DNA from: Minisyncoccota bacterium
Lineage (GTDB): Bacteria > Patescibacteriota > Minisyncoccia > Phycocordibacterales > SBAW01
Direction: 5' to 3'
Assembly (NCBI GenBank): GCA_035549255.1
Contig: DASZRD010000009.1
Span: forward strand, 49,071 to 113,070
Length of the DNA stretch: 64,000 nt
Part shown: positions 15,001 to 28,174 of the stretch, one piece after another
Numbering within the stretch: position 1 is the first letter of the stretch
How the letters are laid out: each line of letters opens with the position of its first letter
Made by a program: the position numbers and the translations under genes
The notes under the pieces: generated by a model
The model's database searches: none
Told to the model about the DNA's origin: nothing
The model's input: the letters and a program-made list of their open reading frames with translations, nothing else

Positions 15001-18000
15001 ACCGGCAACGTCTACGTTGCCGGTGCCATCGGTATCGGTACCAAGAGCCCATGGGCCTCGCTCGACGTGAATGGCAGCATTGCGATCGCCAACAACAACG
15101 GCGGCAGCACCAACAAGCTCTATCTCGCCTCAGGCGACGGCACGCACTATATATATTCGACCGGTTCTGGCGTGGGCGGCAACAACACCTACTTCGGTGA
15201 ATGGGGCGGCAACTATCACTTCCTCGATACGAGCAATTCGTCCGAGCCGGTTACTATTACCGGAGGCAATCTTGGTGTCGGGACCACGACGCCGACTGCA
15301 AAACTCTCGCTCCAGTACAACTCGGGCGATACGCAGACGACTCTCTTCGCGATCGCGTCCTCAACCGGCAGCACAGCGGTAAACCTCTTCTCGGTCGACA
15401 ATACCGGGCTCACGACGATTGGCAATCCGACCGGTACCGGCGACGCGAATATCCAGTTCGGCGGCGACGCTACGGCATGGTCGGTCGGCAACTACGGGGG
15501 CGACAATTCCTTCCGTATTGCATCCTCGACCAACCTTGCCAACAACGTAGCCTTCGAAGTTACTAAGGCCGGTACCGCCTCGACAACGAACCTTACCATT
15601 TCTTCGCTCGGGGCTTCAGCTGGCAGTTGTCTCACCACCGATTCAAGTGGCAATGTGACAACCACTACATGCGGCGGAGGCGGCTCACCATTCCCATTCA
15701 CGCCGTCTGCGCTTGGCAACTCGACTTCGACTCTGCTTCTCCTCAACAACGGCGTCATTGCCGCAGCGTCTTCCACAATCGGTAATGGCAATCAGAACGG
15801 CGGTCTCACAGTGAGCGGTGGTGCCACCACAACCGGCAACGCGTACTTCGCTGGAAATGTAGGGATTAATAATACTCTTGCAGTTGGGGGGAACGTGGTT
15901 ACTTCCGGAGCGCAGATAGACTCTGCTGGGGTCATTTACTCTCATGGAACCGGAGGCATTAGCTTTGCCTTGAACAGCACTGGCAGTAATTATGGAACCA
16001 TCCAGAATGATGCGCCCGACACATGGTCTCTGGGTACCAACAGTATGCTCACTGGTCTCGGTACGCACGTTCTAACTTGGACAAAGGCTGGCAACATCGG
16101 CATCGGTACCTCGACGCCGGCCAGCCTCCTCACGGTAAGTAATAGCAATACGGGCACACTCACGTACGACGGCACGTCGCTTACGGTCTCGCCGGTCGGT
16201 ACTACGACGACCGCAGGCGCTGTGACCATCACGCCGGGAGCGGCGGGAGGTCCGGGCCTCGGCATCAAAGGATTCAATGGTAACAGCATCGCGCAAATCT
16301 TCACATCCTCCGGCAGCCTCCGCACGCTTCAGATAACTAATACCGGCGCGGGTGGTCTTCAGACAGTCTTTGCGGGCGGTACTGGCAAGAACTTGATCGG
16401 CATCGGGACGACATCGCCGTTTGCTCCGCTCTCAATAGCGGCCAACGGTGGCGACACTAACCCGACACTTTTTGCGATCTCCAGCTCAACCGCCGCCTTT
16501 GCTACCACGACGCTCTTCTCGGTCTCCAACACCGGCTCGACCACCATCGCCAACGGTGTCAACATCACGAGCGGCTGCTACGCGGTCAACGGTACCTGCC
16601 TCTCGACCGGTGGTAGCGGCGGCTCACCATTCCCATTCACGCCGTCTGCGCTTGGCAACTCGACTTCGACCCTGCTTCTCCTCAACAACGGCGTCATTGC
16701 TTCCGCATCCTCGACCATCGGCAACGGTACTGCCGCAGGTGGGCTCACGGTCAATGGCAATTCGACGACGACGGGGAGCCTCTATACTGGCGGCGGTATC
16801 ACGATTGCAGGCACGAACCCGAGCTTCGTATCCCTTTCGGAAAATAACGGCGGGGTTAGCTTCATTAACTATCTCGGCAGCGGCAGTGACGGCACTGGGA
16901 CTTATATCACTAACACATCGAACCATTCTCTGTTCCTCGGCACCAATAATACGACCAAGCTTACGATCGCTGCGGGCGGCAACGTTGGCATAGGCTCAAC
17001 CACGCCGGGCACCCTTCTCTCGATCGGCAGCGTCAACGGCATTAACTTCACCACGGCGACCTCGACCTTCAATTCGACCGGCGGCATCAATATTACGAAC
17101 GGCTGCTATGCGGTGAACGGCGTTTGTCTCACGACCGGCGGCGGGAGCAGCCAATGGACCACGAGCGGCTCGAGCATCTACTACAACACCGGCAGTGTCG
17201 GCGTCGGCACCTCTTCACCGTTCGCCAAGTTCTCGGTCCAGCAGAATTACGGCGACACGCAGACGACGCTCTTCCAGATCAGCTCGTCGACGGCTACCGG
17301 CGGCGCAACCGCTAACTCCTTCTTCTCGGTCGACAATACCGGCCTCACGACGATTGGCGATCCTTCCGGCACCGGCGATGCGAACTTCCAGTTCGCCAAT
17401 GACAACCACGCCTGGTCGGTCGGCTACTATGCGGGCGACAACTCCTTCCGCATCGCGTCGGGCACGTCGCTTGCCTCCAACCCGGCTATCTCCGTCGATA
17501 AGAATGGCACGACGACCATATCCAACGGCGTCAACATACAGTCGGGCTGCTTCTCGGTACAGGGGACGTGTCTCAGCTTCTCGAGCGGAGCCGCGGACTC
17601 GCAATTCGTTAGTACCGACGGTCAGGCGAACATCACCACCTCGACGACCTCGCTCGCCACCATCAGCATCACGCCTTCCACGGCGACTGGCGACGTCTTT
17701 GTCAGCGCGAAGGTAAGCATGTCTTCCAAGACGGCCACCGACTTTATTACCAGCATTGCTGTTCGGGATACGACCTGCACCGGCACGATCTTTGCCCAGG
17801 CGATGGCGAGCTCGACCTCCGCGTCCGGCTCCAACGGTTCGACCGCCTTTGCCAACGGCCTCGAGAACAACCCTGGCACGACGAGCCAGACATACGCGCT
17901 GTGCGCGAGCGATACGTCAGGGACCAACCCGGCGACCTACTTCCTCTCGGCACTCGTCATCAACCCCGGCGCCGACGTGGCAGAGCTTTACTCGACGCTC

Positions 18001-19170
18001 GATGCCGGTATTCAGCCTGGCGACATCGTTTCGGCAGATACGACGCATTTCGAGGGTGTGCGCAAGAGCAGCCCGTATGCTGATTCGCAGCTGATGGGCG
18101 TCGTCTCCACCAACCCGAGCGTCGTCATCGGTACCCCGGTCAATCAAAACGGCAATATCGTGCCGATCGCCTTGCGCGGCCGCATCCCGGTGAAGGTCAA
18201 CCTCGAGGGCGGCGATATCGCCGTGGGCGACCGGATCACGCTCTCGTCGGTGTCAGGCGTCGGCAAGAAGGCGGGTGACCTCGACCAGAGCATCGGCATC
18301 GCTCTTGAGCCGTTCACCGCGCAATCGACGACCACCTCCGTGCTCGTGTTCCTCGACATGCAGCAGGGCGACAACGTCGGCGCGCTCACTAATACTCTGC
18401 TCGGCACCTCGACCGCCACCAGCACTGCTACCAGCACGCCGCAAACAGGCTTTCTCTCGGTGCTCTTCTCCCGCATCGCGAGCTGGCTCGGGGGCGCTGG
18501 CAACGGCATCGCGAACATCTTCACGCAGACGCTCACGGCGACCGTCGTCAACGCCGATACGGTCAACACCAAGCAGCTCTGCATCACCGACGCCTCGGGC
18601 GGCAAGACCTGCGTCACCAAGGCCCAGCTCGACCAGCTCCTCCAGGGCCAGGGAGGTAGCGCGGGCTCTGGCGCAGGGTCCGGTTCAGGTTCGGGCGGCG
18701 CAGGATCGGGCAGCGGCACGACGATGCCCGCAAGCCCCGACCCTGACGCGCCGACGATCACGATCAATGGCGCCAACCCGGCGATGCTCGTGGTAGGCGA
18801 CACGTATGCCGACCTTGGCGTGACGGTGAGCGACGCGCAGGATCAGAATCTCGGCTACCTCGTTTCGCTCGACGGTGCTGCGACCACGACGCCCGACCAG
18901 ATCCATATCGACACGTCGGCCGCAGGAACGCATACCATCACGTACGTCGCGACCGATAACGACGGCAATGTCACGACCGCGCTGCGCACCGTAATCGTCC
19001 AGGATGCGGCGAGCTCGACGCCGTCCGTGCTTCCGCCGGTTGATACGGGCGATACCGGTACCACGACCGGAAGCGGCGCCGATGCGGGCGGCACGGCGAC
19101 CTCGACCGATGCCGGGGCGGGTGCCGGTACCGCACAGGGCGGCGAGGGCACGACTACTCCGGCGGAGTAA
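1..19170 (+). CDS. Giant repetitive cell-surface protein, 5'-partial; more than 6387 aa lie in the window
   Basis: The open frame continues from base 1 with no stop upstream of 7 and ends at TAA 19168-19170. It is Ser/Thr/Gly/Asn-rich. Its parts are 44-aa SQNGYLSS-DWT-FNNK repeats, an LVIVD-like propeller, repeated CGGGGSPFPFTP modules, a GS linker and an Ig-like C-terminus. Confidence 0.85.
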   Translation, partial: AVVGDNSFTFDGTTLNAPAAVFTTLTNLGSANLGTVSTGVWHGTAIADSYVADNLTISGGTINNTPIGAATPSTAVFTNATSTNATTTNFYASGQTRLGSLTGLVSANGGIVTAVATNTLGLLGSTSLSATAPLAYNSSTGVFSISQASGSQDGYLASVDWTQFNNKVSSTSLSATGPLAYNPATGVFSLDQAGTSQDGYLSSADWNVFNNKISSSSLSAAGPLSYNSSTGQFTISQASGSQNGYLSSGDWTIFNNKVSSSSLALVINQAYPFPQAGNGTSTLTQFNGGITAYASSTISALTSIFATTSSFAILNVPSALLTTNAQGQVVATSTLGVAYGGTGSSTLGGILIGNGRGSVTSANVSAPLSFSGNTLSIQAASGSQNGYLSSADWTTFNNKISSTSLSAAAPLSYNSSTGQFTISQASGSQNGYLSSSDWNSFNARLSTTTLGLFDKGYFFSTTSADYYLSQQSLVGFSTTSANYWKTQNNFFSTTSAIYFANASTTIPKTYTANTFTGAQTFQNGITTNALSVGSLTGPLQAIGGVVSSTSTLSIIYGGTGTSTPPTYGKVLLGNAQGGYDLVGTSSLGLITNNSLSAIVPLQYNTGTGVFSIQNAKADSSTLGAATFASNDFNDNGSGLISIDYANAQKATGSQAGLLASSDWNVFNNKISSSSLSGASVIAYNGTTGVISTQAGTFGGNASSVYTFPGDLVTTGTATTTNLYIGGTISGANLSSCSGASDKLLWNSSTQQFSCGTDAGASGSDVNWTHFNNSGIRVTTATDQVLIGFTSTSSLSKLEVHGGATIDNATTTNLVTTGVAYFSGNVGIGTTSPYQSLTVASGNILQVAGSNPTLATSTAVGGSTYGVYTSGNYAYVAAGSVRIVDTTQPGASKVVGSYTGTTQAQSIVVSGKYAYVGDASAGLAILDVSNPASPTLVGSLNYSTVGHPLSIALSGRYLIVPDFDSGKVSVVDIANPAAPAVVGTYTTGGAPATVALSGKYAYIGDQADGNIYIEDISNPAKPVALSPYTGLLGPQAIYISGRYAYVADIAGGLYALDISNPASVSLAGSKTGTGYYTVEVAGDYAYVTDSSGNLVVLDVHNLGSITTAGTYATGVSPRGLALSGKYAYVTSGNSTLKVVDINGAKLPAASIGTIETNSINVADAVKVGGDGFFGGGLNVGASGIFSRGGLAVLGSTTLTDLIAKNATTTNATSTNLYASSLIAGNATSTNLSVSGVASTSNLYISNLVAGALAITASGKAYSFSTSTWTFASSTLLGDSNTFSGGNKFTGNTTLANATSTNFALTNITNALLSTNANGSIIPTTISSPLTFSGNTLSIQQATASQNGYLSLTDWNTFNDKISSTSLSGASVISYDSSSGVITTQPGTFGGSGTYAFPNDVQANGNITAEVDGGASSGPNINLVNSGGFGVGGINFFTYAGQTVPSAQWEAEDVGNWTADQIFSTSVGGGTDAPLAARLIIKGTTGYVGIGTTSPLTTLSVGGNTYLGGSLTATGTVQFSNLAAGAVAATANGQLYTFSTSTWTFASSTLLGDSNTFSGNDTFTTAPKLGSLTGLVAGNSGNLYGLSTSSLNASITGQAGNVANSVTFNNGGSGASSGSTFNGSSAVTISYNTIGAVPATRNINTTFPLQGGGSLASDLTITSAFGTTTTTGLTPNQILYTNANGVLTTAASSTLNLPNAALQNSSVTVNGITCTLGSTCTVASTTLLANSNIFSGNNTFTGNTTLANATSTNLALTNITNALLSTNGSGSIIPTTVSSPLTFSGNTLSIQQANGSQNGYLSSTDWTQFNNKVSSSSLATIINSAYEFPGNATSTQLTFNGGLVATGATTTNLAVTGTASTSNLFISNLAAGALGINASGKAYSFSTSTWTFASSTLLSDSNTFSGNNKFTNPITLGTLNGPLQANNGVVSATSSVGVLYGGTGLTSAPSYGNILVGNSSGGYTLTATSSLGLASLSSFSATAPLSYDSSTGVFSISQANGSQNGYLSSVDWTAFNNKISSTSLSGGTGINYTSSTGVITNTGVIAVGPAGQTQNGTVTIASTTASFNGLTFGVQTVGAAGTLTNTPTIAGTLDNSGLTHSTIGLADANSTLTVSGSPAALGASLSATLNLAHGNIWTAASTTFVGGVTIGSATTTNLVATNATTTNLAITSLANTLLSVNAQGAVVATSSLSVNYLAGVLPVGNGGTGSSTLGGILTGNGTGQVTSAQVSSPLTFSGNTLSIQAASGSQNGYLSSTDWTTFNNKISSTSLSASAPLSYNSSTGQFSISQANGSTNGYLTSSDWTQFNAKVSSSSLALVINQAYEFPNNATSTQIAFNGGLTAAGATTTNLSVSGTASTSNLFISNLAAGALGINATGKAYSFSTSTWTFASSTLLGDNNTFSGTDTFTNAPKLSTLTGLISGNSGTLYGTATGTVSGSNGISVTAGQSIIGSGLTITATNAVADASTKGVATFAANDFNDNGSGLISIDYANGQLASGSQNGFLSNSDWNSFNSRLSTTTLGLFDKGYFFSTTSASYFLAQNQGNAFSTTSAIYFANASTTIPKTYTANTFTGAQTFQNGITTNALSLGTLSGPLQANNGVVSATSSIGVLYGGTGLTSAPSYGTILVGNSSGGYTLTATSSLGLAALSSFSATAPLQYDNTTGIFSITQANGSTNGYLSSVDWTAFNNKISSTSLSATGPLSYNPSTGVFAISQANGSTNGYLSSTDWNTFNQKVSSSSLYSYVAGNKDWQIINGALSPTTTLGIGVYASSTIGNGAQSGGLTVNGGATTTGNAYFAGNVGIGTQSPSARLDINASYTTTGFPLSVKNSGYYNAYFQGTNANNQASFYMENDRGSFASYGGFLYGGSTSGLSNLFGAPRADRLFMFADGASNLGYYVGTLTAQPFVIGTNNLERARVDGTTGYVGIATTSPLTTLSVGGNTYLGGNLTATGTVQFTNLSAGAVAATANGTLYTFSTSTWTFASSTLLGDNNTFSGNNTFTNVPKLGGLTGLVAGNSGNLYGLSTTSLNASITGQAGNVANAVTFNNSGSGASSGSTFNGSSAVTISYNTIGAQVAGTYVTSVGATYPLISSGGTAPVISSAFGTSTNWGLGANGIVVTNASGVPFIAASSTLNLPNSALQNSTITVNGIAFNLGDSKTITAASSTLLANSNTFSGNNTFTGNTTLANATSTNLALTNITNALLSTNGSGSIIPTTVSSPLTFSGNTLSIQAASASQNGYLSSTDWTQFNNKVSSSSLAAVVNQAYEFPSNATSTQIAFNGGLTATGATTTNLSVTGTASTSQLYISNLSTGGLGISSTGKVYSFATSTWTFASSTLLGDSNTFSGNNTFTNAPKLGSLTGLVAGNSGNLYGLSTSSLNASITGQAGNVANSVTFNNGGSGASSGSTFNGSGALTVSYNTIGAQVAGTYVTSVNATYPLLSSGGTAPTISTAFGTTTNTGIGSNLFIYTDNNGVFKGAASSSLNLPNSALQNSSITINTSGGLTGGAAVSLGNSISLGCQAASGSQAGCLSSTDWTTFNNKVSSSSLAALNYAAYPFYAAGNATTTLTQFNGGLTAYASSTIGNGILGLTVNGPATTTGNLVVQGSGTSTIAGSLSVSGNLNFNGNLLQNGVPFSSSQWITNGSSIYYGTGNVGIGTSTPYAKLSVAGDIVGGTINATSTTATSTIAGSFNVGNGALSYDVNSGITSINNLQLGAQTFDADAGILSWIDMPVTSASSAGTVESYSAQIDGNPLLTIYSQSDGSGGIQNAAVGIGTTSPFAMLSVQGSGYLAGSLTITGITATGTVQLTSLTGGAVAANPNGTLYTFATSTLTSASSTLLGDSNTFSGNNTFTNAPKLGSLTGFVAANNGTLYQLASSSLNLPNAALQNSSITINGTAFNLGDSKTVAAASSTLLGDTNTFSGTQNAFTNKVGIGTTSPRTTLQVAAGGSGILPQASSIAAFESNSNGYISLLTPDSAENGLLFGSPTGGNADAGIIYNNNTNLRGLTFRTGGNNTHMVIDSSGNVGIGTTSPGATFAVAGDGYLTGALTVGGQTTLAASLNGLLKATNGVVSAAVAGTDYSNFAYPFPLTGNATSSLTQFNGGLTAYATSTIGNGAQAGGLTVSGGATTTGNAYFGGNVGIGTNAPTSALTLALGNSIALYNTADQTTNYERGQIDWTSNALRIETVGGGSGSNSRSVILSSGGANLVTASAGTVKVTLNGGTSGVGPGVLTNGSFNGASTNQVVQSIAPTFNQSGTSGYTALLIQPTETAVGSGNKYLIQAGTSTAATLFAVDNAGNITTNITGSTQCLHVNSSGVISGTGADCGAGGSPFPFTPLALGNATSTLLLLNNGVIAAASSTIGNGTAAGGLTINGSATSTGTTTIQNAFAVTGTNGGVPVSGAGTRLEFIPNLGALRAGQVSSTQWDASNIGTSSFATGLDTTASGGYSAALGYRATASGVGSFAGGYFTDCGMGIISSGIGSFAYGYLNHGVTGCAFTQIQASGNGSVAMGYALAGRTITATQSGSIALGYANNGSITSSGIGSFAVGDGNITSSGSGSVALGYGESGLLSATGQGAVAIGANVNATQNNALAFGSSFTNNIASTFQVGFSATPTLTVTATNTGIGTTSPYAKFSISANGSDTNSTLFAIASSTSGTATSTLFAVSNIGTITTTLGAGAVGVNSLGQLYSFATSSGSAASSTLLADYNTFSHLQQFNGGFTAYASSTIGNGAQIGGLTVSGGATTTGNAYFAGNVGVGTVSPGSTLDVGGTAQLRGAGGGTGLYVNSSGNVGIGTTGQNAKLEIRQDGNGVQTQLVLRNNQGSSNGATSRLGFGVYRDVDATALGAAIDAITTAGIPNGDNAEGAILAFSTTKDGTSGLQERMRILNTGNVGIGTKNPQATLDVQGTASSSNLFVTNAATTTSLAITGLTSQSCIGTNSQGQVVAGTCGGGGSPFPFTPSALGNSTSTLLLLNNGVIATASSTIGNGTATGGLTVNGNSTTTGNVYVAGAIGIGTKSPWASLDVNGSIAIANNNGGSTNKLYLASGDGTHYIYSTGSGVGGNNTYFGEWGGNYHFLDTSNSSEPVTITGGNLGVGTTTPTAKLSLQYNSGDTQTTLFAIASSTGSTAVNLFSVDNTGLTTIGNPTGTGDANIQFGGDATAWSVGNYGGDNSFRIASSTNLANNVAFEVTKAGTASTTNLTISSLGASAGSCLTTDSSGNVTTTTCGGGGSPFPFTPSALGNSTSTLLLLNNGVIAAASSTIGNGNQNGGLTVSGGATTTGNAYFAGNVGINNTLAVGGNVVTSGAQIDSAGVIYSHGTGGISFALNSTGSNYGTIQNDAPDTWSLGTNSMLTGLGTHVLTWTKAGNIGIGTSTPASLLTVSNSNTGTLTYDGTSLTVSPVGTTTTAGAVTITPGAAGGPGLGIKGFNGNSIAQIFTSSGSLRTLQITNTGAGGLQTVFAGGTGKNLIGIGTTSPFAPLSIAANGGDTNPTLFAISSSTAAFATTTLFSVSNTGSTTIANGVNITSGCYAVNGTCLSTGGSGGSPFPFTPSALGNSTSTLLLLNNGVIASASSTIGNGTAAGGLTVNGNSTTTGSLYTGGGITIAGTNPSFVSLSENNGGVSFINYLGSGSDGTGTYITNTSNHSLFLGTNNTTKLTIAAGGNVGIGSTTPGTLLSIGSVNGINFTTATSTFNSTGGINITNGCYAVNGVCLTTGGGSSQWTTSGSSIYYNTGSVGVGTSSPFAKFSVQQNYGDTQTTLFQISSSTATGGATANSFFSVDNTGLTTIGDPSGTGDANFQFANDNHAWSVGYYAGDNSFRIASGTSLASNPAISVDKNGTTTISNGVNIQSGCFSVQGTCLSFSSGAADSQFVSTDGQANITTSTTSLATISITPSTATGDVFVSAKVSMSSKTATDFITSIAVRDTTCTGTIFAQAMASSTSASGSNGSTAFANGLENNPGTTSQTYALCASDTSGTNPATYFLSALVINPGADVAELYSTLDAGIQPGDIVSADTTHFEGVRKSSPYADSQLMGVVSTNPSVVIGTPVNQNGNIVPIALRGRIPVKVNLEGGDIAVGDRITLSSVSGVGKKAGDLDQSIGIALEPFTAQSTTTSVLVFLDMQQGDNVGALTNTLLGTSTATSTATSTPQTGFLSVLFSRIASWLGGAGNGIANIFTQTLTATVVNADTVNTKQLCITDASGGKTCVTKAQLDQLLQGQGGSAGSGAGSGSGSGGAGSGSGTTMPASPDPDAPTITINGANPAMLVVGDTYADLGVTVSDAQDQNLGYLVSLDGAATTTPDQIHIDTSAAGTHTITYVATDNDGNVTTALRTVIVQDAASSTPSVLPPVDTGDTGTTTGSGADAGGTATSTDAGAGAGTAQGGEGTTTPAE
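382..777 (+). repeat. Three tandem 132-bp (44-aa) repeats 'LSA..PL.YNSSTG.F.ISQASGSQ(N/D)GYLSS.DWT.FNNK.SS.S'. More copies are dispersed at about 1080-1320, 3960-4090, 5320-5460, 5890-6080, 6680-6930, 7930-8220, 9630-9770 and 10540-10640.
   Basis: Found by direct inspection of the translated giant ORF and its DNA. Confidence 0.8.
2560..3440 (+). repeat. Eight '(S/A)G.YAYV...L.(I/V)(L/V)D(V/I)SNPA.P..VG.Y' blades, matching the LVIVD-repeat beta-propeller pattern, inside the giant protein
   Basis: The unit recurs every ~40 aa: SGNYAYVAAGSVRIVD..., SGKYAYVGDASAGLAILDVSNP..., SGRYLIVPDFDSGKVSVVDIANP..., SGKYAYIGD..., SGRYAYVADIAGGLYALDISNP..., AGDYAYVTDSSGNLVVLDV..., SGKYAYVTSGNSTLKVVDI... Confidence 0.6.
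14851..14958 (+). repeat. ~100-bp near-identical intragenic direct repeat, copy 1 (GGSPFPFTPSALGNSTSTLLLLNNGVIA module)
   Basis: An ~81-bp stretch 'ggctcaccattcccattcacgccgtctgcgcttggcaactcgacttcgac(t/c)ctgcttctcctcaacaacggcgtcattgc' starts at 14851, 15682 and 16621 and differs at only one base in the third copy. A diverged copy sits at ~12982. Confidence 0.85.
15682..15789 (+). repeat. ~100-bp near-identical intragenic direct repeat, copy 2
   Basis: See copy 1. Confidence 0.85.
16621..16730 (+). repeat. ~100-bp near-identical intragenic direct repeat, copy 3
   Basis: See copy 1. Confidence 0.8.
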
Positions 19171-19183
19171 TATATAAAGATCC

Positions 19184-20158
19184 ATGAAAAAATGGCTGAT
19201 CATCGGTTTGCTTATCCTCGCCGTCGGGGTGTCCCTGGGTTTGTGGGCGTCGCGCATGCTTGTAAGGAGCGCGCCTTCCTGCTCGGCAGAGTATCCGTTG
19301 CTGGACGACTCCGTCGGATGCGACGATGCGCAGCCCGTCATAACCAAGACGAGCTATACCGCGCTGCAGCAGAGCCTGCTTGCATACATACAAAATGAGA
19401 AGAGTTCGGGGGACACGGCCGATATAGCGATCTTTTTCCGCGACCTTAAGGACGGACCGGTGTTCGGCATCAACGAGCTTGAGGATTTTACGCCCGCGAG
19501 CCTGCTGAAGCTCCCGCTGGCGTTCGCCTATCTCAATGTCGCCGACGAGTACCCGGATTATCTGCAGAAGGAGCTCTTCTATACCGGTACCTCGTCCGTG
19601 ATCGATCAGAATTTCCCGCCCCCCGTCTCCGTCAAGGCCGGGCAGCCGTATACGCTCGAAGAGCTTCTGCAGTACATGATTTCGTACTCCGACAATGGCG
19701 CCTACCAAATGCTCAACGATTATCTCGCTGGCGACCCGAGCCGCAAGGTCCTCCTCGACCAGACCTTCCAGGAGCTCGGTATCATCGACCCCGCGAGCGA
19801 GGATGCGAACACGGTCAGCGTGCGGAGCTATGCGTCGCTCTTCCGGCTGCTCTACAGCGCGGCGTATATCAGCCCCGACCACTCGCAGCTCCTCCTCCAG
19901 TGGCTCTCGGACTCGTCCTTTACCCAGGGGCTGGTTGCGGGCGTACCCGAAGGGGTCACCGTCGCCCACAAATTCGGCGAGCGCTCATTGCCGGACGGCA
20001 CGAAGCAGCTCCATGACTGTGGCATCGTCTATTTTCCGGAGAACCCCTACATCTTGTGCGTCATGACGAAGGGGAGCGACTGGACCAAGCTTGAAGGCGT
20101 GTTGCGGACCGTCTCGCAAATGGTCTATGCGGAAGTCTTATCGAGGAAGCAGAACTAG
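19184..20158 (+). CDS. Membrane-anchored serine hydrolase with a class A beta-lactamase / PBP-like fold
   Basis: It has an N-terminal TM helix, an S-x-x-K motif (PASLLKLP), an SDN motif (YSDNGA) and a K-x-G motif (HKFGE). Its start is 13 nt after the giant gene's stop. Confidence 0.6.
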   Translation: MKKWLIIGLLILAVGVSLGLWASRMLVRSAPSCSAEYPLLDDSVGCDDAQPVITKTSYTALQQSLLAYIQNEKSSGDTADIAIFFRDLKDGPVFGINELEDFTPASLLKLPLAFAYLNVADEYPDYLQKELFYTGTSSVIDQNFPPPVSVKAGQPYTLEELLQYMISYSDNGAYQMLNDYLAGDPSRKVLLDQTFQELGIIDPASEDANTVSVRSYASLFRLLYSAAYISPDHSQLLLQWLSDSSFTQGLVAGVPEGVTVAHKFGERSLPDGTKQLHDCGIVYFPENPYILCVMTKGSDWTKLEGVLRTVSQMVYAEVLSRKQN

Positions 20159-20219: not shown

Positions 20220-23200
20220 ATGCAGGGCAGGGCAGGGCGCATCATAAAAAAACCGATACAAAGATTCTTCGCGAGCATGCTTGTGCTCGCGCTTGTCGCG
20301 GAAGCCTACGCCCCGCTGCCAACCGTCCTAAAACTTCCTCTTTTTAAGGAAGGTACGGTGCACGCAAGTTCAACGATAGTTACTTACCTTACATCCGGTA
20401 CTTCCTGGACTGTACCTCTCGACTGGAACTCCGCGAGCAATACCATCGAAGTCATCGGCGGCGGTGGGGGTGGTGGTAATGGTGCAAGCGGAGTTGCTGG
20501 TGGCGGTGGAGGAGGTGGCGGCGCATATTCAAAAACCTCGAACCTTTCCTTGGTTCCCGGTAACAGTGTCGCCTATGGCATTGGGACTGGCGGTAGCGCC
20601 CAAACATCTGGCGGCGATACTTTTTTTAACAGAACCTCGGGTTCAGCTAATACTTGTGCAGACGTATCGTCTGTGTGTGCAAAAGGGGGTTCCGGTGCCA
20701 CGAGCGCGACTGGCGCAGGCGGCGGTTCATCTGGAAGCGGCCGAGGAAGCACATTGTATTCTGGTGGCACCGGCGGCACGGTCCCCAGCGGCGGCTCGAT
20801 GGGTGCCGGGGGCGGCGGGGCAGCAGGCCTTAACGGGGCGGGAAAAAACGGCGGCACACCTACCGGCGGCAACCCTGTGGGCGGTTCAGGCGGCGGCGGC
20901 GCTGATAACGGGGCTAATGGTGCTGCCAATACTACAACCACTGGTGGCGCAGGTGGGGCTAACTATCTTGGCTCTGGAGGTGGGTCTGGGGGTACTACGG
21001 GAGTTGGCGGCACAGGTAGTAACGGCGGTGGAGGCGGAGGTGGCGGAGCGGCTACCTCTAATACTTCTTTTGCTGGTGGTGCTGGCGGCGCGGGTATCGA
21101 GTGGGATGCATCACATGGTTCGGGAGGTGGAGCAGGCGGAGCTGCCATGAACGATACTGGCTCTACCGCTGCTACAAATGGCTCTACTGGAGGTCTATAT
21201 GGCGGCGGTGGATCTGGTGGCGCCGCGACCTCCCATGGTGGCTCGACCGGCGGCTCTGGCGCCCAGGGCCTCATCGTCATCACGTATACGCCGGTTGTTC
21301 AAATTTCAACGATCTTTCTTACTTCCGGCACATCCTGGACCGTACCGAACGATTGGAATTCGTCTAATAATACTGTCGAAGTCATCGGCGGCGGTGGCAG
21401 TGGTGGTGCCGCTAAGAATAATGGTGTTAGTTCGGGATCCGGTGGTGGTGGTGGCGGCTATGCAAAAATAACGAATCTAAATCTTACTCCCGGGACTTTG
21501 GTTACTTATCAAGTTGGGGCTGGCGGTACTGCAGTTACTGCCACTGCCGGAAGCGGAAGCGCAGCTGATGTACCAGGGAATAATGGTACAGCCTCATACT
21601 TTAATGGCACGTCTGCCGCTGCTTCAAGTGTCGCAGCAAATGGCGGATCGGGGGGAGGAGCAATCGGCACCTCAGGATCTCTTAGCGGAGGTGCGGGTGG
21701 CACTGTCGTTGTTGGTTCGGGGTATAGTGGAGGCGCCGGGGGTTTAATAAGTGGTAGCGGTTCAAGTGCTCGCGGTACCGGCGGCGGCGGCGCAGGAGGA
21801 TCAAATGGAGCTGGAAATTCGGGTGCGACTTTGTCGGCTACAGGTGCAAGCGATGGGGGTTCCGGCGACGCCGGCTTCGGCGGTTCTTCGACGGGGACAG
21901 CGGGGGCCTTAAATAATACTGCTAGTTCTGGCGGCAACGGGACCGAATGGAATTCTGCGCCCGCGTATGGTGCTGGTGGCGGTGGCGGCGGAGCATATGC
22001 GACTGGGGTAGCTTCTATTGCTGGTGGTGATGGAGGCACCTATGGTGCGGGTAGCGGTGGAGCGGCAAACGATAGAAATTCTTCCGGCTCGGCAACATCT
22101 GGTGCCGGACAACCGGGCATCATCGTCATCACGTATACGTCCTATGTTCCACCCTCCCGCATCATCCGCCTCTTCGGCTCGTATACAAGCGCGCCGATGC
22201 ATATTTACCTTACGACGACCGGCTCGGGCACGTGGACGGTCCCGAGCGACTTTACTTCCAACGGCAGCAGTATCGAAGTCATCGGAGCCGGCGGAGGTAC
22301 GGCAAATACCAACGGCCCCTGCTGCGGCTACGGAGCATACGGGAGCGGCGGCGGCGCATATTCTGAAATTTCGAATGTCTCGCTTACGCCGGGCACTACG
22401 GTCGGCATTAATGTCCCGGCCGGAGGAGCCCCCGGCAGCAGCGGCGGGGATACGTGGCTGTGCAGCTCAACTTCGGGATGTTCATCAATAACTGATACGA
22501 ATGTCATTGTTGGCGCCAAGGGCGGCACAGTGGGGAATCAATCATCGGGCTTAGGTGGCGCATATACATCTGGTGTAGGCACCATAAGATATTCCGGCGG
22601 CAACGGCGGCGTGGGTATCGACACGAATGGCAGCGGCGGCGTCGATTATGCCGGCGGCGGAGGCGGCGCGGGAGGGCCGAACGGCAATGGCGCAAATGGA
22701 GGCAATGGTAGCAGCCTTTCAGAATTCGCTGGCGGCGGCGGTGGCAACGGCGGAGGGTCTGCAGGCCAAGCAGCTTCAACCATAGCGGGAGGCAGTGGCG
22801 GTAATAACTCTCTTGGTTCGGGAGCCGGGGCCGGAGGCAGCAGCAGCAACTCCAATACCTGCAGCGCAGGTACAAATGGCGGTGGTGGTGGCGGAGGCGA
22901 TGGAGGCGCTGGCTGTACTGGCGGTAATGGTACAGAGTGGGACGCCTCTCATGGCTCCGGAGGCGGAGGCGGAGGCGGTTCGACAGGCGGGAACGGCGGT
23001 ACCTATGGCGGCGGGGCAGGTTCTTCAGGCACTACTCCTACCGCAACAGGCGGTCAGGGCATCATTGTCATCACGTACTCACGGCCCAATGTGCGGACAT
23101 TGCGGATTATAGGAGGCGCTGCGCAGCAAATCCTTGGGGGTACTAAGCAAGTAGTTCTTTCGGCCAATCCCGGAGGCGGAAATCAGACATGGATCGTGCC

Positions 23201-24164
23201 AGGAGACTTCAGCTCCCTCATCAAAGTTGAGTGTATTGGGTCTGGAGGGCATGGAGGACAAGGGAATGCTAGTAATGCCGGGGGTGGTGGCGGCGGCGGT
23301 GGAGCTTATGCGTCAACCACGGCGGTTACTGGCCTTACTCCCGGTGCCTCGATATTGTATGCCGTGGGCGCATCAGCAACAACGACTTCGGCAACGAACC
23401 CAGTCGCTAATGCTCGAGAAACGTACTTTAATGGCACCGCATCTTCTACTGCAGCGCTTACCTGTGATTGGGGAAGAATGGGTGGTGTTCCGACAGGCGG
23501 TATTGCAGGCTCGACCGCTTTCTCTGTTCCTTCCTCGAATTCTTCAACGGGCGGTTCTTATGCTGGCGGCTCTGGCGGTGGCGGTTCGAGTGGAACTACG
23601 GGTGGCGGTGGCGGTGGCGGTGGAAGCGCGGGTCCTATTGGAATAGGAAAGTCAGGTGGCACCGCTCAAACCTTAACTAACTTAGGAAGTGCCGGCGGCG
23701 GCGGGGGTTCTAATGGCGGCTCTTCAACTGCTGGGGGTTCACCAAGTTCGGGCGGTCCTGGTGGCAATGGTGGTAATAACACTTCTGGTACAGGAGGTGG
23801 TAGTGGGACGGCAGCATCAATGGGGGGCGCAAGTGCTAGTGCTACGGACGGTTCTAACGGCGGCGGCGGCGGCGGTTCAGGTGGTGCGAATACTACATCT
23901 GGTGCAGGTGGTAGTGGTTCATGCGATACGACTCTTGATGGTAGTACGAGTGGCGCGTGCGGCGGCGGCGGCGGCTCAGGATTCCCAAACGGAGGTACCC
24001 CCGGCCAGCCGGGTGCTGGAGGCGCCTTCGGCGGCGGCGGCGGCGGCGCGAGTTCTCAGATATCACCTCTTGTTCCTGGAGCATCAGGGGGTCAAGGCAT
24101 CATTGTAATTACCTACTCGTCCATTAGTTACCGCCCCGTCATCAAGCTGTATCAATCGCAATAA
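20220..24164 (+). CDS. Gly-rich secreted multi-module protein (1314 aa) with four tandem ~300-aa modules
   Basis: An N-terminal hydrophobic segment is followed by four modules. Each starts '..TSG(T)SWTVP.DW.S..N.IEVIGGGGGG', carries a central 'S.ISN.SLTPGT.V.Y.VG.GG' and ends 'GQGIIVITY(T/S)'. About 45% of residues are Gly. Confidence 0.8.
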   Translation: MQGRAGRIIKKPIQRFFASMLVLALVAEAYAPLPTVLKLPLFKEGTVHASSTIVTYLTSGTSWTVPLDWNSASNTIEVIGGGGGGGNGASGVAGGGGGGGGAYSKTSNLSLVPGNSVAYGIGTGGSAQTSGGDTFFNRTSGSANTCADVSSVCAKGGSGATSATGAGGGSSGSGRGSTLYSGGTGGTVPSGGSMGAGGGGAAGLNGAGKNGGTPTGGNPVGGSGGGGADNGANGAANTTTTGGAGGANYLGSGGGSGGTTGVGGTGSNGGGGGGGGAATSNTSFAGGAGGAGIEWDASHGSGGGAGGAAMNDTGSTAATNGSTGGLYGGGGSGGAATSHGGSTGGSGAQGLIVITYTPVVQISTIFLTSGTSWTVPNDWNSSNNTVEVIGGGGSGGAAKNNGVSSGSGGGGGGYAKITNLNLTPGTLVTYQVGAGGTAVTATAGSGSAADVPGNNGTASYFNGTSAAASSVAANGGSGGGAIGTSGSLSGGAGGTVVVGSGYSGGAGGLISGSGSSARGTGGGGAGGSNGAGNSGATLSATGASDGGSGDAGFGGSSTGTAGALNNTASSGGNGTEWNSAPAYGAGGGGGGAYATGVASIAGGDGGTYGAGSGGAANDRNSSGSATSGAGQPGIIVITYTSYVPPSRIIRLFGSYTSAPMHIYLTTTGSGTWTVPSDFTSNGSSIEVIGAGGGTANTNGPCCGYGAYGSGGGAYSEISNVSLTPGTTVGINVPAGGAPGSSGGDTWLCSSTSGCSSITDTNVIVGAKGGTVGNQSSGLGGAYTSGVGTIRYSGGNGGVGIDTNGSGGVDYAGGGGGAGGPNGNGANGGNGSSLSEFAGGGGGNGGGSAGQAASTIAGGSGGNNSLGSGAGAGGSSSNSNTCSAGTNGGGGGGGDGGAGCTGGNGTEWDASHGSGGGGGGGSTGGNGGTYGGGAGSSGTTPTATGGQGIIVITYSRPNVRTLRIIGGAAQQILGGTKQVVLSANPGGGNQTWIVPGDFSSLIKVECIGSGGHGGQGNASNAGGGGGGGGAYASTTAVTGLTPGASILYAVGASATTTSATNPVANARETYFNGTASSTAALTCDWGRMGGVPTGGIAGSTAFSVPSSNSSTGGSYAGGSGGGGSSGTTGGGGGGGGSAGPIGIGKSGGTAQTLTNLGSAGGGGGSNGGSSTAGGSPSSGGPGGNGGNNTSGTGGGSGTAASMGGASASATDGSNGGGGGGSGGANTTSGAGGSGSCDTTLDGSTSGACGGGGGSGFPNGGTPGQPGAGGAFGGGGGGASSQISPLVPGASGGQGIIVITYSSISYRPVIKLYQSQ

Positions 24165-24166
24165 CT

Positions 24167-24733
24167 ATGTCGCGCACGCAACGAGCAATCATTCGCATCA
24201 TAGTGACGCTTCTTGGCATAGGCATTGTCGTTGCCGCTTTGTGGTACGGCATCCAATTTTTTACGCATCACAGCAGTTCAAATACAAATGTTCCGTTCGG
24301 CCAGATGACGACGCCGCCCGTGCAGCAGGCGCCCGCCGGGTACAAGGAATATCACAGTGATTTGTATCGCTTCTCGATCATCTATCCGGATGACCTAGCC
24401 TTTTTAGCCTATCCTGAAGCTGCGGGCGGTGGGACATTCACCTTCGAGAACGACAGCCAGGGTCGTGGCTTTCAGGTCTATGTAACGCCATTTCAGGGCT
24501 CGCAGATCACCGACGAACGCTTCAAGGCTGACGACCCCTCCGGCGTGCGCGACAATTTGCAGAATATCACCGTCGATGGCGCCGTCGGCGCGTCATTCTA
24601 TGGCAAGGACAAGGCGCTCGGCGACACGGCCGAGATCTGGTTCCTCCGTGAGGGCTACTTGTATGAAGTCACCACGCTCAAGGCGACCGCCGACCTCTTG
24701 ACCTCGGTCATGCAGACGTGGAAGTTCTACTAG
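24167..24733 (+). CDS. Small membrane-anchored partner protein (188 aa), paralog of 27605..28174
   Basis: Its start is 2 nt after the upstream stop. It has an N-terminal TM helix. Motifs conserved with the paralog are YH.D.Y.FS..YPD.L, FTFE.D, QITD..FK.DDPSGVRD, LGDT.E.WF.R.G.LYEVTT and a C-terminal MQTWKFY. Confidence 0.75.
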   Translation: MSRTQRAIIRIIVTLLGIGIVVAALWYGIQFFTHHSSSNTNVPFGQMTTPPVQQAPAGYKEYHSDLYRFSIIYPDDLAFLAYPEAAGGGTFTFENDSQGRGFQVYVTPFQGSQITDERFKADDPSGVRDNLQNITVDGAVGASFYGKDKALGDTAEIWFLREGYLYEVTTLKATADLLTSVMQTWKFY

Positions 24734-24744
24734 CGCTCCGCTCG

Positions 24745-24753
24745 TGCGATACT
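24745..24753 (+). promoter_or_regulatory. Candidate extended -10 promoter element TGcGATACT, 11 nt upstream of the ATG of cassette 2
   Basis: Spacing and sequence match the element at 20200-20208. It lies in the 31-nt gap between the partner-1 stop and cassette 2. Confidence 0.4.
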
Positions 24754-24764
24754 AAAGGGACGTC

Positions 24765-27608
24765 ATGCAGGGCAGGAGACAGACAGTCTTTCATATTCTA
24801 AAAAGAGCATCGGCTGGTTTTCTTATCAGCGCGCTTATACTTGCGGCGTATGTCTCGATCCCAGGCATAGCGCCGCTCCCAAGCGCCTACGCAGCGGTTT
24901 GTGCCGGCGGCACGTACTCCGGCGGCATTTGCACTATTATGCTCACCTCCGGCAGCACCTGGACGGTGCCGAGCGATTGGGGTTCTCCTAATACTATCGA
25001 AGCAATCGGTGGTGGCGGAGGCGGAGGCGGAGGAGGCCGCGGGGGCGGGGGCGGGGGCGCAGCTGCTTTGATATCGAATCAATCGCTTACTCCTGGTACG
25101 ACGCTTGGTATAAATATAGGCGCGGCCGGTGCAGCTGGCGGAACGAACACTGACGGAGGTACTGGTGGCGATACGTGGCTCTGTAGTTCGACTTCGAGCT
25201 GCAGCTCGATTTCCGACACGAATGTTATCGTCGGTGCTAAGGGCGGCTCCGGTTCATCAAGCACTTCCGGCGGCGCAGGGGGTGTCGGCTCGAGCGGCGT
25301 TGGAGCGACAAAGAACTCTGGTGGTGCGGGTGGTAATGCAACCACTACTGGTACGTACAAAGGTGGCGGTGGTGGCGGTGGCGTGGGGGGCCTCGGCGGC
25401 GTGGGCGGTACTGGCGGCGCAGGTAATGGCGGTGGCGGTGGCGGTGGCGGTGCCGCTCTGGGCGGCATAGGCGGTATTGGTGGTGCCGGAGGTTTTGGCG
25501 GCTCCGGTGGTGGCGGAGGTGGTGGCGGTTCTGGAGGTATGAATGGTGGGCAGGGAGGTGCTGGTGGAAGAGGACCTAATAATGATGGCGGTGGCGGGGG
25601 CGGTGGCGGCATCGGAAGCAGCAGTGGTTCTGGAGGTAATGGCGGTATTGGAGGCGATTCGGGTGGCGGTGGCGGTGGCGGTGGCGGCGCTGCAGTTGGT
25701 GGTTCCGGAGGCAATGGTGGCGATGCTGCTGCTTTTGGCGGCTCTGGCGGCGGCGGCGGCTCCGGTGGACCTGGTGGCGGTGCTGGCGGTGCTGGCGGCG
25801 GTGGGGCAAGTTTTGAGCCTTTTGGCGGTGGCGGCGGAGGCATAGGAGGTACTGGTGGCACCGGTGGAGTTGGAGGGACTGCAAATACTCAATCTGCTGG
25901 CGGTGGCGGCGGTGCAGCTTCTTCAGGCGGTGCAGGCGGTGCGGGTGGTGCGGGTGGCACTAGCGGTATTGGCGGTGGCGGTGGCGGCCAGGGTGGTTCT
26001 GGCGCTGGTGGCGGTAGCGGTGCTACTGGCGCACAAAACGGCGGTGGTGGTGGCGGTGGTGGTTCGTCAGGCGCTGGCGGTAATTCAACTTCTTCAACGG
26101 GAGGCGCAGGAGGTTCCGGCGGTGGCGGCGCGGGTGGCACTGGCAATACAAATCCTGGTGGTAATGGCAGTGATGCTATTGGCCAAGGCGGCGGAGGTGG
26201 CGGTGGCGGTAATAATACTGGTAGTGGTACCGGAGGTACCGGAGGTAATAGTGGCGGCGCAGGTGGAGCAAGTCAAAGCAGTAGTTGCGGTGGTGGCGGA
26301 GGTGGTGCAGGCCCTGGCGGAGGCGGAGGTGGAGGATGTGTGATAGGCGGCGCAGGTAGTGCGGGACCTAGTACAACTGGCGGTGGCGGAGGTGGTGGTA
26401 GTTTCGGTTCAGGTGTTGGGGGCGGCAGAGGGGGTAATTCTGGTGGTTCTGGTGGTATTGGTAATGGCGGTGGCGGTGGCGGTGGCCAAGGCGGTGGCGG
26501 TGGCGGTGGTTATAACGGCGGCGGCGCGGGAAGTAGCGGCCCTGGATCAAGCGGCGGCGGCGGAGGTGGCGGCGAGGAAGCTACTCCGGGTGGTGCTGGT
26601 GGAAATAGCGGCGGTGCAGGCGCGAATTATGGCGGTGGCGGTGGCGGTGGCCAAGGCGGTGGCGGTGGCGGTGGCGCAGCAGGTAATGATGGCAGTGGGG
26701 CTATTGGCAGTACTCCTGGCGGCGGCGGAGGTGGTGGAAGCCTTAATTCTTCCATACTAGAAGCTGGTGCCGCAGGCGGCCAAGGGGAAATAATCATTAC
26801 GTATACTCCGCTCGTTCGCGCTCGCACCATTCTTCTTTTCGGTTCGATAACGGGTGGCGTGACGCCCATCCGCTCTTTGCGCGTGATTGGTTCGGGTGGT
26901 ATCTCTCATGCCCAAAAAACAGTCACTCAAAACTACGATGCGCAGGTCGATACTTCGCAGTCAGTATTTGGTGGTGGAAGCGCGCTCTTTGACGGCACCA
27001 ACGACAACCTCCAGCTCGACAGCAGCCCGGATTTTACCTTTGGCACCGGCGACTTCACGATAGATTTCTGGATGCGGCCCAACGTCGTCAATACCGACAT
27101 GGTGCTCTACGACGGCCGGCCGGCCGGCACCAACGGCGCCTACCCGACCATCTATCTCAGCAATACCAACCACATCTCATACCTTGCAAACAACGCCACC
27201 AGGATCACCGGCACTACCAACATCGCGGCCGGCACCTGGTACCATGTCGCTCTTGCGCGTAGCGGCACGGCGACCAAACTATTTCTCAACGGGGTGCAAG
27301 AGGGCTCGACGTATACCGACAGCACGAATTATCTGCCCATGGACACGACGCCGGGGCTGTCGCGACCGCTCATCGGCATACGGTCGACCGACCTCTTGAG
27401 CGGTTTCAACGGCTGGATTGACGAGCTGCGCGTGAGCAAGGGCATCGCCCGCTGGACAACCACGTTTACTCCGCCAAGCGCTGCCTATGTGCCCGATGCG
27501 TATACCGTACTTCTTTTGCATATGGATGGCACCGATGGCCAAGAGACATTTACCGATGCTACTGGAAATCTTCTTAACCGCCAGATAATCATTTATCCTC
27601 TGCAATGA
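24765..27608 (+). CDS. Gly-rich secreted protein (947 aa): one hyper-expanded module plus a C-terminal LamG/concanavalin-like domain
   Basis: It shares the 'MQGR' start and TM segment with the 20220 gene. Its single module runs from 'LTSGSTWTVPSDWGSPNTIEAIGGGGGG' through ~600 aa of poly-Gly to 'GQGEIIITYTP'. The C-terminus carries LamG signatures: 'FTIDFWMRPN', 'WYHVALARSG..KLFLNGV' and 'GWIDELRVSKG'. Confidence 0.8.
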   Translation: MQGRRQTVFHILKRASAGFLISALILAAYVSIPGIAPLPSAYAAVCAGGTYSGGICTIMLTSGSTWTVPSDWGSPNTIEAIGGGGGGGGGGRGGGGGGAAALISNQSLTPGTTLGINIGAAGAAGGTNTDGGTGGDTWLCSSTSSCSSISDTNVIVGAKGGSGSSSTSGGAGGVGSSGVGATKNSGGAGGNATTTGTYKGGGGGGGVGGLGGVGGTGGAGNGGGGGGGGAALGGIGGIGGAGGFGGSGGGGGGGGSGGMNGGQGGAGGRGPNNDGGGGGGGGIGSSSGSGGNGGIGGDSGGGGGGGGGAAVGGSGGNGGDAAAFGGSGGGGGSGGPGGGAGGAGGGGASFEPFGGGGGGIGGTGGTGGVGGTANTQSAGGGGGAASSGGAGGAGGAGGTSGIGGGGGGQGGSGAGGGSGATGAQNGGGGGGGGSSGAGGNSTSSTGGAGGSGGGGAGGTGNTNPGGNGSDAIGQGGGGGGGGNNTGSGTGGTGGNSGGAGGASQSSSCGGGGGGAGPGGGGGGGCVIGGAGSAGPSTTGGGGGGGSFGSGVGGGRGGNSGGSGGIGNGGGGGGGQGGGGGGGYNGGGAGSSGPGSSGGGGGGGEEATPGGAGGNSGGAGANYGGGGGGGQGGGGGGGAAGNDGSGAIGSTPGGGGGGGSLNSSILEAGAAGGQGEIIITYTPLVRARTILLFGSITGGVTPIRSLRVIGSGGISHAQKTVTQNYDAQVDTSQSVFGGGSALFDGTNDNLQLDSSPDFTFGTGDFTIDFWMRPNVVNTDMVLYDGRPAGTNGAYPTIYLSNTNHISYLANNATRITGTTNIAAGTWYHVALARSGTATKLFLNGVQEGSTYTDSTNYLPMDTTPGLSRPLIGIRSTDLLSGFNGWIDELRVSKGIARWTTTFTPPSAAYVPDAYTVLLLHMDGTDGQETFTDATGNLLNRQIIIYPLQ

Positions 27609-28174
27609 GAAAGCTCGTTCTAATTTCTGTAGGAGTTTTTACGGTAGCTATATTAGGCCTGCTTGGTGTCTGGTATATGCAATCTCCGGCGATTTCATCT
27701 GTCGCAATAGATCTAGGCACTTCTTCAGGGGCGTCTTCCACAGTCCCGTCAACTACTCCGCTCGTGCGCGACGTGCCTGCGGGCCAGAACGAGTATCATA
27801 ATGACGCCTATCACTTCTCTGTGCTCTATCCGGACAACCTCAAAGTTGCCGAGCAAGACAATGGCGCAAGCGCGACGTTCACCTTCGAGGATGATAAAAA
27901 CGTGCAGGGCTTCCAGCTTTTCGTGCAGCCGTTCTCGGGCACGCAGATAACTGATGCGCAATTTAAACAGGACGATCCGTCCGGGGTGCGCGACGACCCG
28001 CAGAACTTCACGCTCGACGGCGCTTCTGGCGTGGCCTTCTATAGCCAGGATCATTTGCTCGGAGACACGCGCGAGATGTGGTTCATTCGTGGCGGCTTCC
28101 TTTATGAGGTGACGACCTTCAAAGAGCAGGCTGACTGGCTCGACCAGATCATGCAGACGTGGAAATTCTATTAG
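27605..28174 (+). CDS. Small membrane-anchored partner protein (189 aa), paralog of 24167..24733
   Basis: An ATGA overlap joins its start to the upstream stop. It is ~55% identical to the first partner over ~130 aa. Confidence 0.75.
   Translation: MRKLVLISVGVFTVAILGLLGVWYMQSPAISSVAIDLGTSSGASSTVPSTTPLVRDVPAGQNEYHNDAYHFSVLYPDNLKVAEQDNGASATFTFEDDKNVQGFQLFVQPFSGTQITDAQFKQDDPSGVRDDPQNFTLDGASGVAFYSQDHLLGDTREMWFIRGGFLYEVTTFKEQADWLDQIMQTWKFY

Follow-up and report, generated by a model that had tools for sequence, protein, structure and literature searches.

The closest described relatives of the protein presented here are glycine-rich domains that phages place at the tips of their fibres. In the cyanophage Pam3, such a domain is built around a TNF-like sandwich, whose strands run into six loops with twelve glycine-rich motifs that form a four-layer lattice; its distal tip is less conserved and has been proposed to bind the receptor (PMC9608196). 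Related virion proteins are gp33 of the mycobacteriophage Bxb1, known as the 'tail wing brush', and part of its tail spike gp29 (PDB 9D93), and a similar architecture is found in the TNF-like + glycine-rich (TG) supradomain of the animal receptor tyrosine kinases ALK and LTK (7LIR, 7LRZ, 7NX3). Likewise, the gp38 adhesins of T-even-type phages, such as that of Salmonella phage S16 (6F45), present hypervariable receptor loops on a glycine-rich polyglycine-II scaffold, in which conserved glycine-rich motifs alternate with hypervariable segments (bioRxiv 10.1101/2023.11.25.568672). Here, we describe a cellular protein with four homologous TG domains, which is apparently exported. It is encoded on a 64,000-nucleotide stretch of DNA, hereafter the window, from a Minisyncoccota bacterium (assembly GCA_035549255.1, contig DASZRD010000009.1, positions 49,071 to 113,070), which represents a piece of a cellular chromosome of Candidatus Paceibacterota (Patescibacteria/Candidate Phyla Radiation). 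We consider it probable that this protein, encoded by the open reading frame (ORF) at 20220–24164 on the forward strand, is an exported receptor-binding protein or adhesin that displays four heads, its anciently diverged TG domains, on the cell surface, and that it is co-expressed with the partner encoded downstream.

The ORF comprises 1314 residues, 417 of which are glycines (32%), and consists of a putative signal or anchor followed by four tandem TG modules (Pfam Gly_rich_2). Motif searches and a MAFFT alignment place these modules, all on the forward strand, at residues 52–357 (module 1; nucleotides 20373–21290), 362–642 (module 2; 21303–22145), 660–956 (module 3; 22197–23087) and 978–1303 (module 4; 23151–24128). 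With lengths of 281–326 residues, they agree with an earlier, sequence-only reading of the locus, which had proposed four consecutive modules of about 300 residues. The edge motifs that this reading described as invariant do recur in all four, with W.VP.D(W/F) at the opening, L(T/V)PG in the center and G(I/L)IVITY at the close, but they are not invariant: modules 1 and 2 follow the proposed patterns closely, module 3 does so loosely (DF for DW, and LTTTGSGTW), and module 4 is the loosest fit (NQTWIVPGDFSS..KVECIG). The module interiors, said to be almost exclusively G/S/A/T/N, indeed consist of these residues to 73–78%, but they also hold conserved motifs that had been passed over, namely GGDT(F/W), Y(S/A)GG.GG, G(T/I)EWD and YG.G.

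The similarity between the modules goes well beyond their shared composition. In local alignments, each of the six module pairs scores 9.4–19.7 standard deviations above 200 composition-preserving shuffles, which refutes the notion that the repeats are a chance product of compositional bias; pairwise identities range from 40 to 54%, or from 22 to 37% when columns of paired glycines are left out. All modules also match an independent family profile (A3), which we built from 32 single-domain homologs of other organisms, many of them annotated as PF21722, excluding the sequences of the window. In these hhalign comparisons, modules 1, 2 and 3 align over their full length with a probability of 100% (E-values of 5e-48, 1e-49 and 4e-41, respectively), while the most divergent one, module 4, is matched with a probability of 99.6% (E 7e-24). 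For the latter, the top match covers the N-terminal half, and hidden Markov model searches recover two pieces (residues 987–1233 and 1177–1305), the closing part being found separately.

The four modules are old paralogs. A recent tandem amplification was rejected, because their DNA is just 60–80% identical at the motifs and because, in a rough neighbor-joining tree, which is weak as it stems from short low-complexity segments, they do not group together, each having closer kin in other genomes, or in the second glycine-rich protein of the window (see below), than among its neighbors. Module 3 is nearest to the module of this second protein, and GGDTWLCSSTSGCSSITDTNVIVGAKGG is common to both. 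In addition, an 84-nucleotide stretch of module 3 (22443–22526) is 74% identical to one in the second protein's module (25164–25247). It encodes GGDTWLCSSTS(G/S)CSSI(T/S)DTNVIVGAKGG, with two cysteines, and is absent from the other modules; its origin may lie in common ancestry or in gene conversion, and it may form a disulfide-bearing loop.

In the Pfam database, the modules correspond to family PF21722 (Gly_rich_2), to which many of their homologs are already assigned; no other glycine-rich-domain family in Pfam matches them. Module 2 scores 27.4 bits against a gathering threshold of 24.3 and covers profile positions 3–225 of 226, modules 1 and 4 stay below the threshold with 19.6 and 14.3 bits, and module 3 gives no match. 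Membership by the Pfam criterion thus hinges on module 2, as it alone exceeds the gathering threshold. Searches of NCBIfam and PHROGs returned no significant match for the protein, and we found no literature under the family name PF21722 or Gly_rich_2. The link to phage fibres is detectable at the sequence level: a search with the family profile A1 (46 sequences) against PDB sequences identified the Pam3 fibre (7YFW/7YPX) with an E-value of 5e-9, in an alignment that takes in the opening and central strands as well as the closing one (GIIIVQY), and the single protein sequence finds the same chains with an E-value of 8e-4. The sequence-only reading had likened the modules to glycine-rich domains of phage tail-fibre-like proteins; this kinship is borne out for the domain, but the gene itself is cellular and not a phage fibre gene. 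A tblastn search of a phage genome collection with module 2 gave no match, which is uninformative, as the low-complexity filter probably strips most of the query.

Structure prediction was carried out for module 2 and for the partner protein discussed below. The AlphaFold2 model of module 2 is compact and confident throughout, with a mean predicted local distance difference test (pLDDT) score of 93.3, a predicted template modeling (pTM) score of 0.91 and no low-confidence segments, in line with the earlier proposal of a compact fold instead of a disordered linker. It matches the two-sheet TNF-like sandwich and the layered lattice of glycine hairpins that characterize the Pam3 gp24-type TG fold. 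A Foldseek search of the PDB retrieved the Pam3 fibre and chain Q of the Bxb1 tail tip with a probability of 1.00, followed by the glycine-rich domains of ALK and LTK, which the module resembles in both sandwich and lattice. The edge motifs (L/F)TSGTSWTVP and IEVIG, the central LTPG..V.Y.VG and the closing GIIVITY are β-strands of this jelly-roll-type sandwich. Of the two folds considered in the sequence-only reading, the β-sandwich is therefore the one that stands, while a β-helix is not supported, and the glycine-rich part, taken there for capping loops, would instead be an ordered lattice of extended polyglycine-II-type segments that grows from the sandwich. We infer this lattice from homology with the solved structures of Pam3, ALK and Obg, and the polyglycine-II geometry of the interior is deduced from superposition, not measured. 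In this arrangement, the glycine-rich motifs between the strands would form hairpins that pack into the lattice via main-chain hydrogen bonds, and the variable, polar, indel-prone segments of each module would sit between them. Indeed, when family conservation and insertions are mapped onto module 2, conserved glycine-rich motifs alternate with variable, insertion-prone segments, as in Pam3 gp24 and in gp38; a structural or sequence match of the modules to gp38 (6F45) was not found. Both the domain and its fold, like the relatives in phages and in ALK, were thus known already, and the modules do not represent a new kind of fold.

Despite this similarity, the protein differs from its relatives in several respects. 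Pam3 gp24 carries one TG domain on the α-helical trimeric shaft of a virion protein, whereas here four of them, each about 75–120 residues longer than the Pam3 TG region, follow one another in a single chain of a cellular genome. A trimerizing, baseplate-docking helical shaft is absent, and the 51 residues that precede module 1 are of a basic and hydrophobic, secretion-type character. By sequence inspection, they include a basic n-region and a hydrophobic segment (MQGRAGRIIKKPIQRFFASMLVLALVAEAYA; 20220–20312), which we take to be a signal peptide or signal anchor of the Sec type. A basic stretch (MQGRRQ...) and a hydrophobic segment likewise open the second glycine-rich protein. Moreover, gp24 is folded with the help of the Tfa-like chaperone gp25, whereas the gene downstream of our protein encodes a PsbP-like fold, and the locus is not a virion-gene setting with a Tfa/gp25-type chaperone. 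The Bxb1 proteins, for their part, are single-domain virion proteins, unlike the four-module chain described here, and the ALK/LTK domains belong to receptor ectodomains with a larger lattice and cytokine ligands, and show no detectable sequence-family match to the modules.

The family as a whole is large. When 1.84 billion cluster representatives were searched with a profile, 10,595 proteins emerged at E ≤ 0.001, of which 1,618 remained at E ≤ 1e-30. In a biased sample of 335 family proteins, most contain a single module (245); two modules occur in 74 of them, three in 14 and four in just two, namely the protein described here and P0123, whose modules are non-contiguous. Given these counts, four contiguous modules mark the top of the observed range, yet they are a natural extension of a family in which tandem copies are common. 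Homologs are fused to LamG, DUF2341, FN3, Ig-like and RCC1 domains, to RHS toxins in Bradyrhizobium and to TcdB/FG-GAP proteins, and one (P0085) carries a type IV pilin N-terminus; all of these contexts are secreted or targeting ones. In the Bradyrhizobium RHS toxins, two TG modules make up the N-terminus, and in proteins of the TcdB/FG-GAP type, TG modules lie at the C-terminal end (together P0124–P0126, P0130, P0136, P0200 and P0201, and P0131, P0198, P0232 and P0235). This suggests that secreted toxins have co-opted the domain for targeting. Another subfamily, of a different architecture with a single module and a length of about 360–425 residues (P0001, P0002, P0006, P0007 and about 25 others), is characterized by a conserved N-terminal domain of about 100 residues, ..W(R/C).PS...PKD.FGNE..TRF....DG...W.GWF(D/E)DR(D/E)DADAFL.., and often ends with ..NMPMLGM.

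The gene is part of a cluster that contains a second glycine-rich gene, two partner genes and a giant gene. The second glycine-rich protein (947 residues; 24765–27608, forward strand) has one TG module at residues 55–680 (nucleotides 24927–26804), whose glycine-rich interior is expanded to about 626 residues with 33 glycine-rich runs, compared to 6–12 for each module of the first protein. A LamG domain follows at residues 743–892. The giant ORF (7–19170, forward strand), which extends past the start of the window and encodes more than 6387 residues, contains LVIVD repeats, a bacterial surface Ig-like domain and many copies of a motif of about 40 residues, ..TG.F.ISQASGSQNGYLSS.DW..FNNK... The cluster in the window, and likewise that in two related contigs (L003 and a Joint Genome Institute contig), has such a giant gene upstream. 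The counterpart in L003 (1–6872), which directly precedes the TG gene, has a Peptidase_S74 intramolecular-chaperone domain (SSDARLKQNV...) as is typical of phage fibres; this domain was not found in the giant ORF of the window. Between the giant ORF and the first glycine-rich gene, at 19184–20158 (forward strand), lies a gene of the Beta-lactamase2 family (Pfam E 6e-36), whose product has a hydrophobic segment at its N-terminus. In contig L003, a homolog of this gene lies close to the corresponding cluster, on its downstream side. A diversity-generating retroelement was considered and rejected: we found no DNA repeats that join 20220–28174 to other parts of the window, and hence no template repeat within it.

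Each of the two glycine-rich genes is directly followed by a gene for a partner protein of about 188 residues. Partner 1 (188 residues; 24167–24733, forward strand), whose start lies 2 nucleotides past the stop of the first glycine-rich ORF, consists of an N-terminal transmembrane helix and a PsbP/Mog1-like domain; partner 2 (189 residues; 27605–28174, forward strand) is 49% identical to it, and its start overlaps the upstream stop (ATGA). We surveyed 76 partner loci in species-representative genomes, nearly all of them from Patescibacteria. The ORF that ends at the partner start usually bears a basic and hydrophobic C-terminal tail, e.g. ..RKMRLFEGFKIKFLNGRIILHQ. or ..RAVRLRGGVRLRGGTRLQ, regardless of whether it contains TG modules. 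This tail (loci L002–L084) comprises about 25 residues in three strands and follows the pattern ..R(K/T)MRLFEGF.IKF..G(R/K)IIL.Q. or R.VRLRGGVRL.GG.RL. With a strict pattern, it is found in 26 of 67 ORFs directly upstream of a partner, compared to 6 of the 1216 other ORFs that these loci contain, and these six all lie upstream in the same clusters. We found no NCBIfam model for the motif and no paper on it. Genomic position thus links the partner to a C-terminal tail motif not described before, a new side finding that we consider the one most worth following up. At the best homolog of the glycine-rich protein, P0121, the small gene upstream is unrelated to the partner.

In the first glycine-rich protein, tail-like strands are found in the linkers after modules 2 and 3. 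The linker between modules 2 and 3 (22146–22196) contains SRIIRLFGS, which resembles the first strand of the relatives' tail motif, and the one between modules 3 and 4 (VRTLRIIGGAAQQILGGTKQ; 23088–23150) has basic and hydrophobic strands of the same kind. The short C-terminal tail itself (SYRPVIKLYQSQ and stop; 24129–24164) is a reduced form (RPVIKLYQSQ) of the tail on proteins encoded directly upstream of partner genes. In the second protein, LamG is apparently inserted within the tail, portions of which lie at about 26805–26900 and at 27570–27608. The first glycine-rich protein is probably co-expressed with its membrane-anchored PsbP-like partner, which may, speculatively, anchor it or help assemble it via the short C-terminal tail; whether docking or sorting, any such role for the partner is put forward here purely as a hypothesis.

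What, then, does this protein do? Surface display with four receptor-binding heads is suggested because the solved relatives reside at a proposed receptor-recognizing fibre tip, as in Pam3, or in ligand-binding ectodomains, as in ALK and LTK, and because variable segments on a conserved scaffold are combined with extracellular fusion partners. Four diverged heads would confer different specificities or added avidity, and they would plausibly serve the attachment of a presumably episymbiotic bacterium to its host or to a substrate. Several points weigh against this interpretation. For the Pam3 tip, receptor binding is in turn just a proposal (PMC9608196), and the adhesin role would follow from homology and fusion domains. 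Module 3 on its own has no Pfam match, the whole protein scores 15.9 bits with PF21722 against the threshold of 24.3, and modules 1, 3 and 4 are assigned the fold by profile alignment, the model being that of module 2. In addition, signal-peptide cleavage is uncertain, because a proline follows the likeliest signal-peptidase site. Finally, just about a third of the partner loci (24 of the 70 with enough upstream sequence) have a TG-module ORF immediately before the partner gene.

The main rival to a receptor-binding role is a structural, non-adhesive one, in which the tandem TG modules would form rigid blocks of an envelope coat or fibre together with the giant upstream protein, free of any specific recognition. 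The giant fibre-like gene directly upstream of the TG gene in related contigs and the stability of polyglycine-II bundles as scaffolds speak for this. The location of the solved relatives at the distal tip of phage fibres or in ligand-binding receptor domains speaks against it, and the variable segments between the glycine motifs and the deep divergence of the modules fit diversified recognition better than a uniform scaffold. We therefore regard a structural role as a serious, if rather unlikely, alternative. Given that the closest solved structures are phage fibre proteins, and that the LamG part of the second protein matches PHROGs annotated as baseplate wedge or virion structural protein, one might also suspect a tail-fibre gene of a prophage or phage contig that works in a virion. 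We think this very improbable: the window contains the housekeeping genes GAPDH, split transketolase, release factor, PheT, GyrB and DnaE, we saw no capsid, terminase or tail genes in the flanks, and the cluster is syntenic beside GAPDH and pentose-phosphate genes in several other Patescibacteria contigs; moreover, the first protein has no significant PHROGs match, begins with a secretion-type N-terminus and lacks a helical shaft like the one by which Pam3 gp24 is attached to the baseplate.

Equally improbable, in our view, is a targeting module of a polymorphic toxin with the PsbP-like partner as its immunity protein. The TG modules on RHS toxins and TcdB-like proteins bring this to mind, and the partner fold resembles the type VI secretion system immunity proteins TplEi and Tsi3, but the PsbP/Mog1 fold is generic, neither glycine-rich protein of the window has a toxin or RHS domain, and the C-terminal tail motif with which the partner is associated occurs on a wide range of surface proteins, not on toxins. 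Lastly, the composition (32% glycine, 73–78% G/S/A/T/N in the interiors) is what one would expect of a low-complexity, disordered spacer with motifs recurring by chance, and the bias correction of HMMER drops the Pfam score of the whole protein below the threshold; this explanation is already refuted by the shuffle control and the model of module 2, and we give it next to no credence. Thus, a surface-displayed receptor-binding protein or adhesin with four TG heads continues to be the interpretation we favor.

A broader picture, which we offer tentatively and hold to be less likely than not to be true in full, is that the two glycine-rich proteins are cargo of an undescribed surface-display system of Patescibacteria. 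Large tailed surface proteins with TG, LamG, DUF2341 and other domains would be docked, sorted or anchored by the partner through their tails, and together with the product of the giant upstream gene they would form a host-attachment apparatus of phage-fibre-derived parts, with TG heads as exchangeable receptor-binding tips.

Since the domain, the fold and the phage and ALK relatives are known, our findings should surprise the specialist only moderately; and as it belongs to a large family of about 10,600 representatives, in which tandem copies are nothing unusual, the protein is best seen as an unusually repetitive addition to that family. To protein scientists, it offers a naturally occurring case of domains with a likely polyglycine-II lattice that are concatenated in one chain. 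For the biology of Patescibacteria, it means that a chromosome of this group holds four diverged copies of a domain that phages place at their fibre tips. On how these ultra-small, host-dependent bacteria recognize and attach to their hosts, the literature that we found is concerned with type IV pili and secretion systems. The TG protein, the second glycine-rich protein, the giant fibre-like protein and the membrane partner are concrete candidates for determinants of host specificity.

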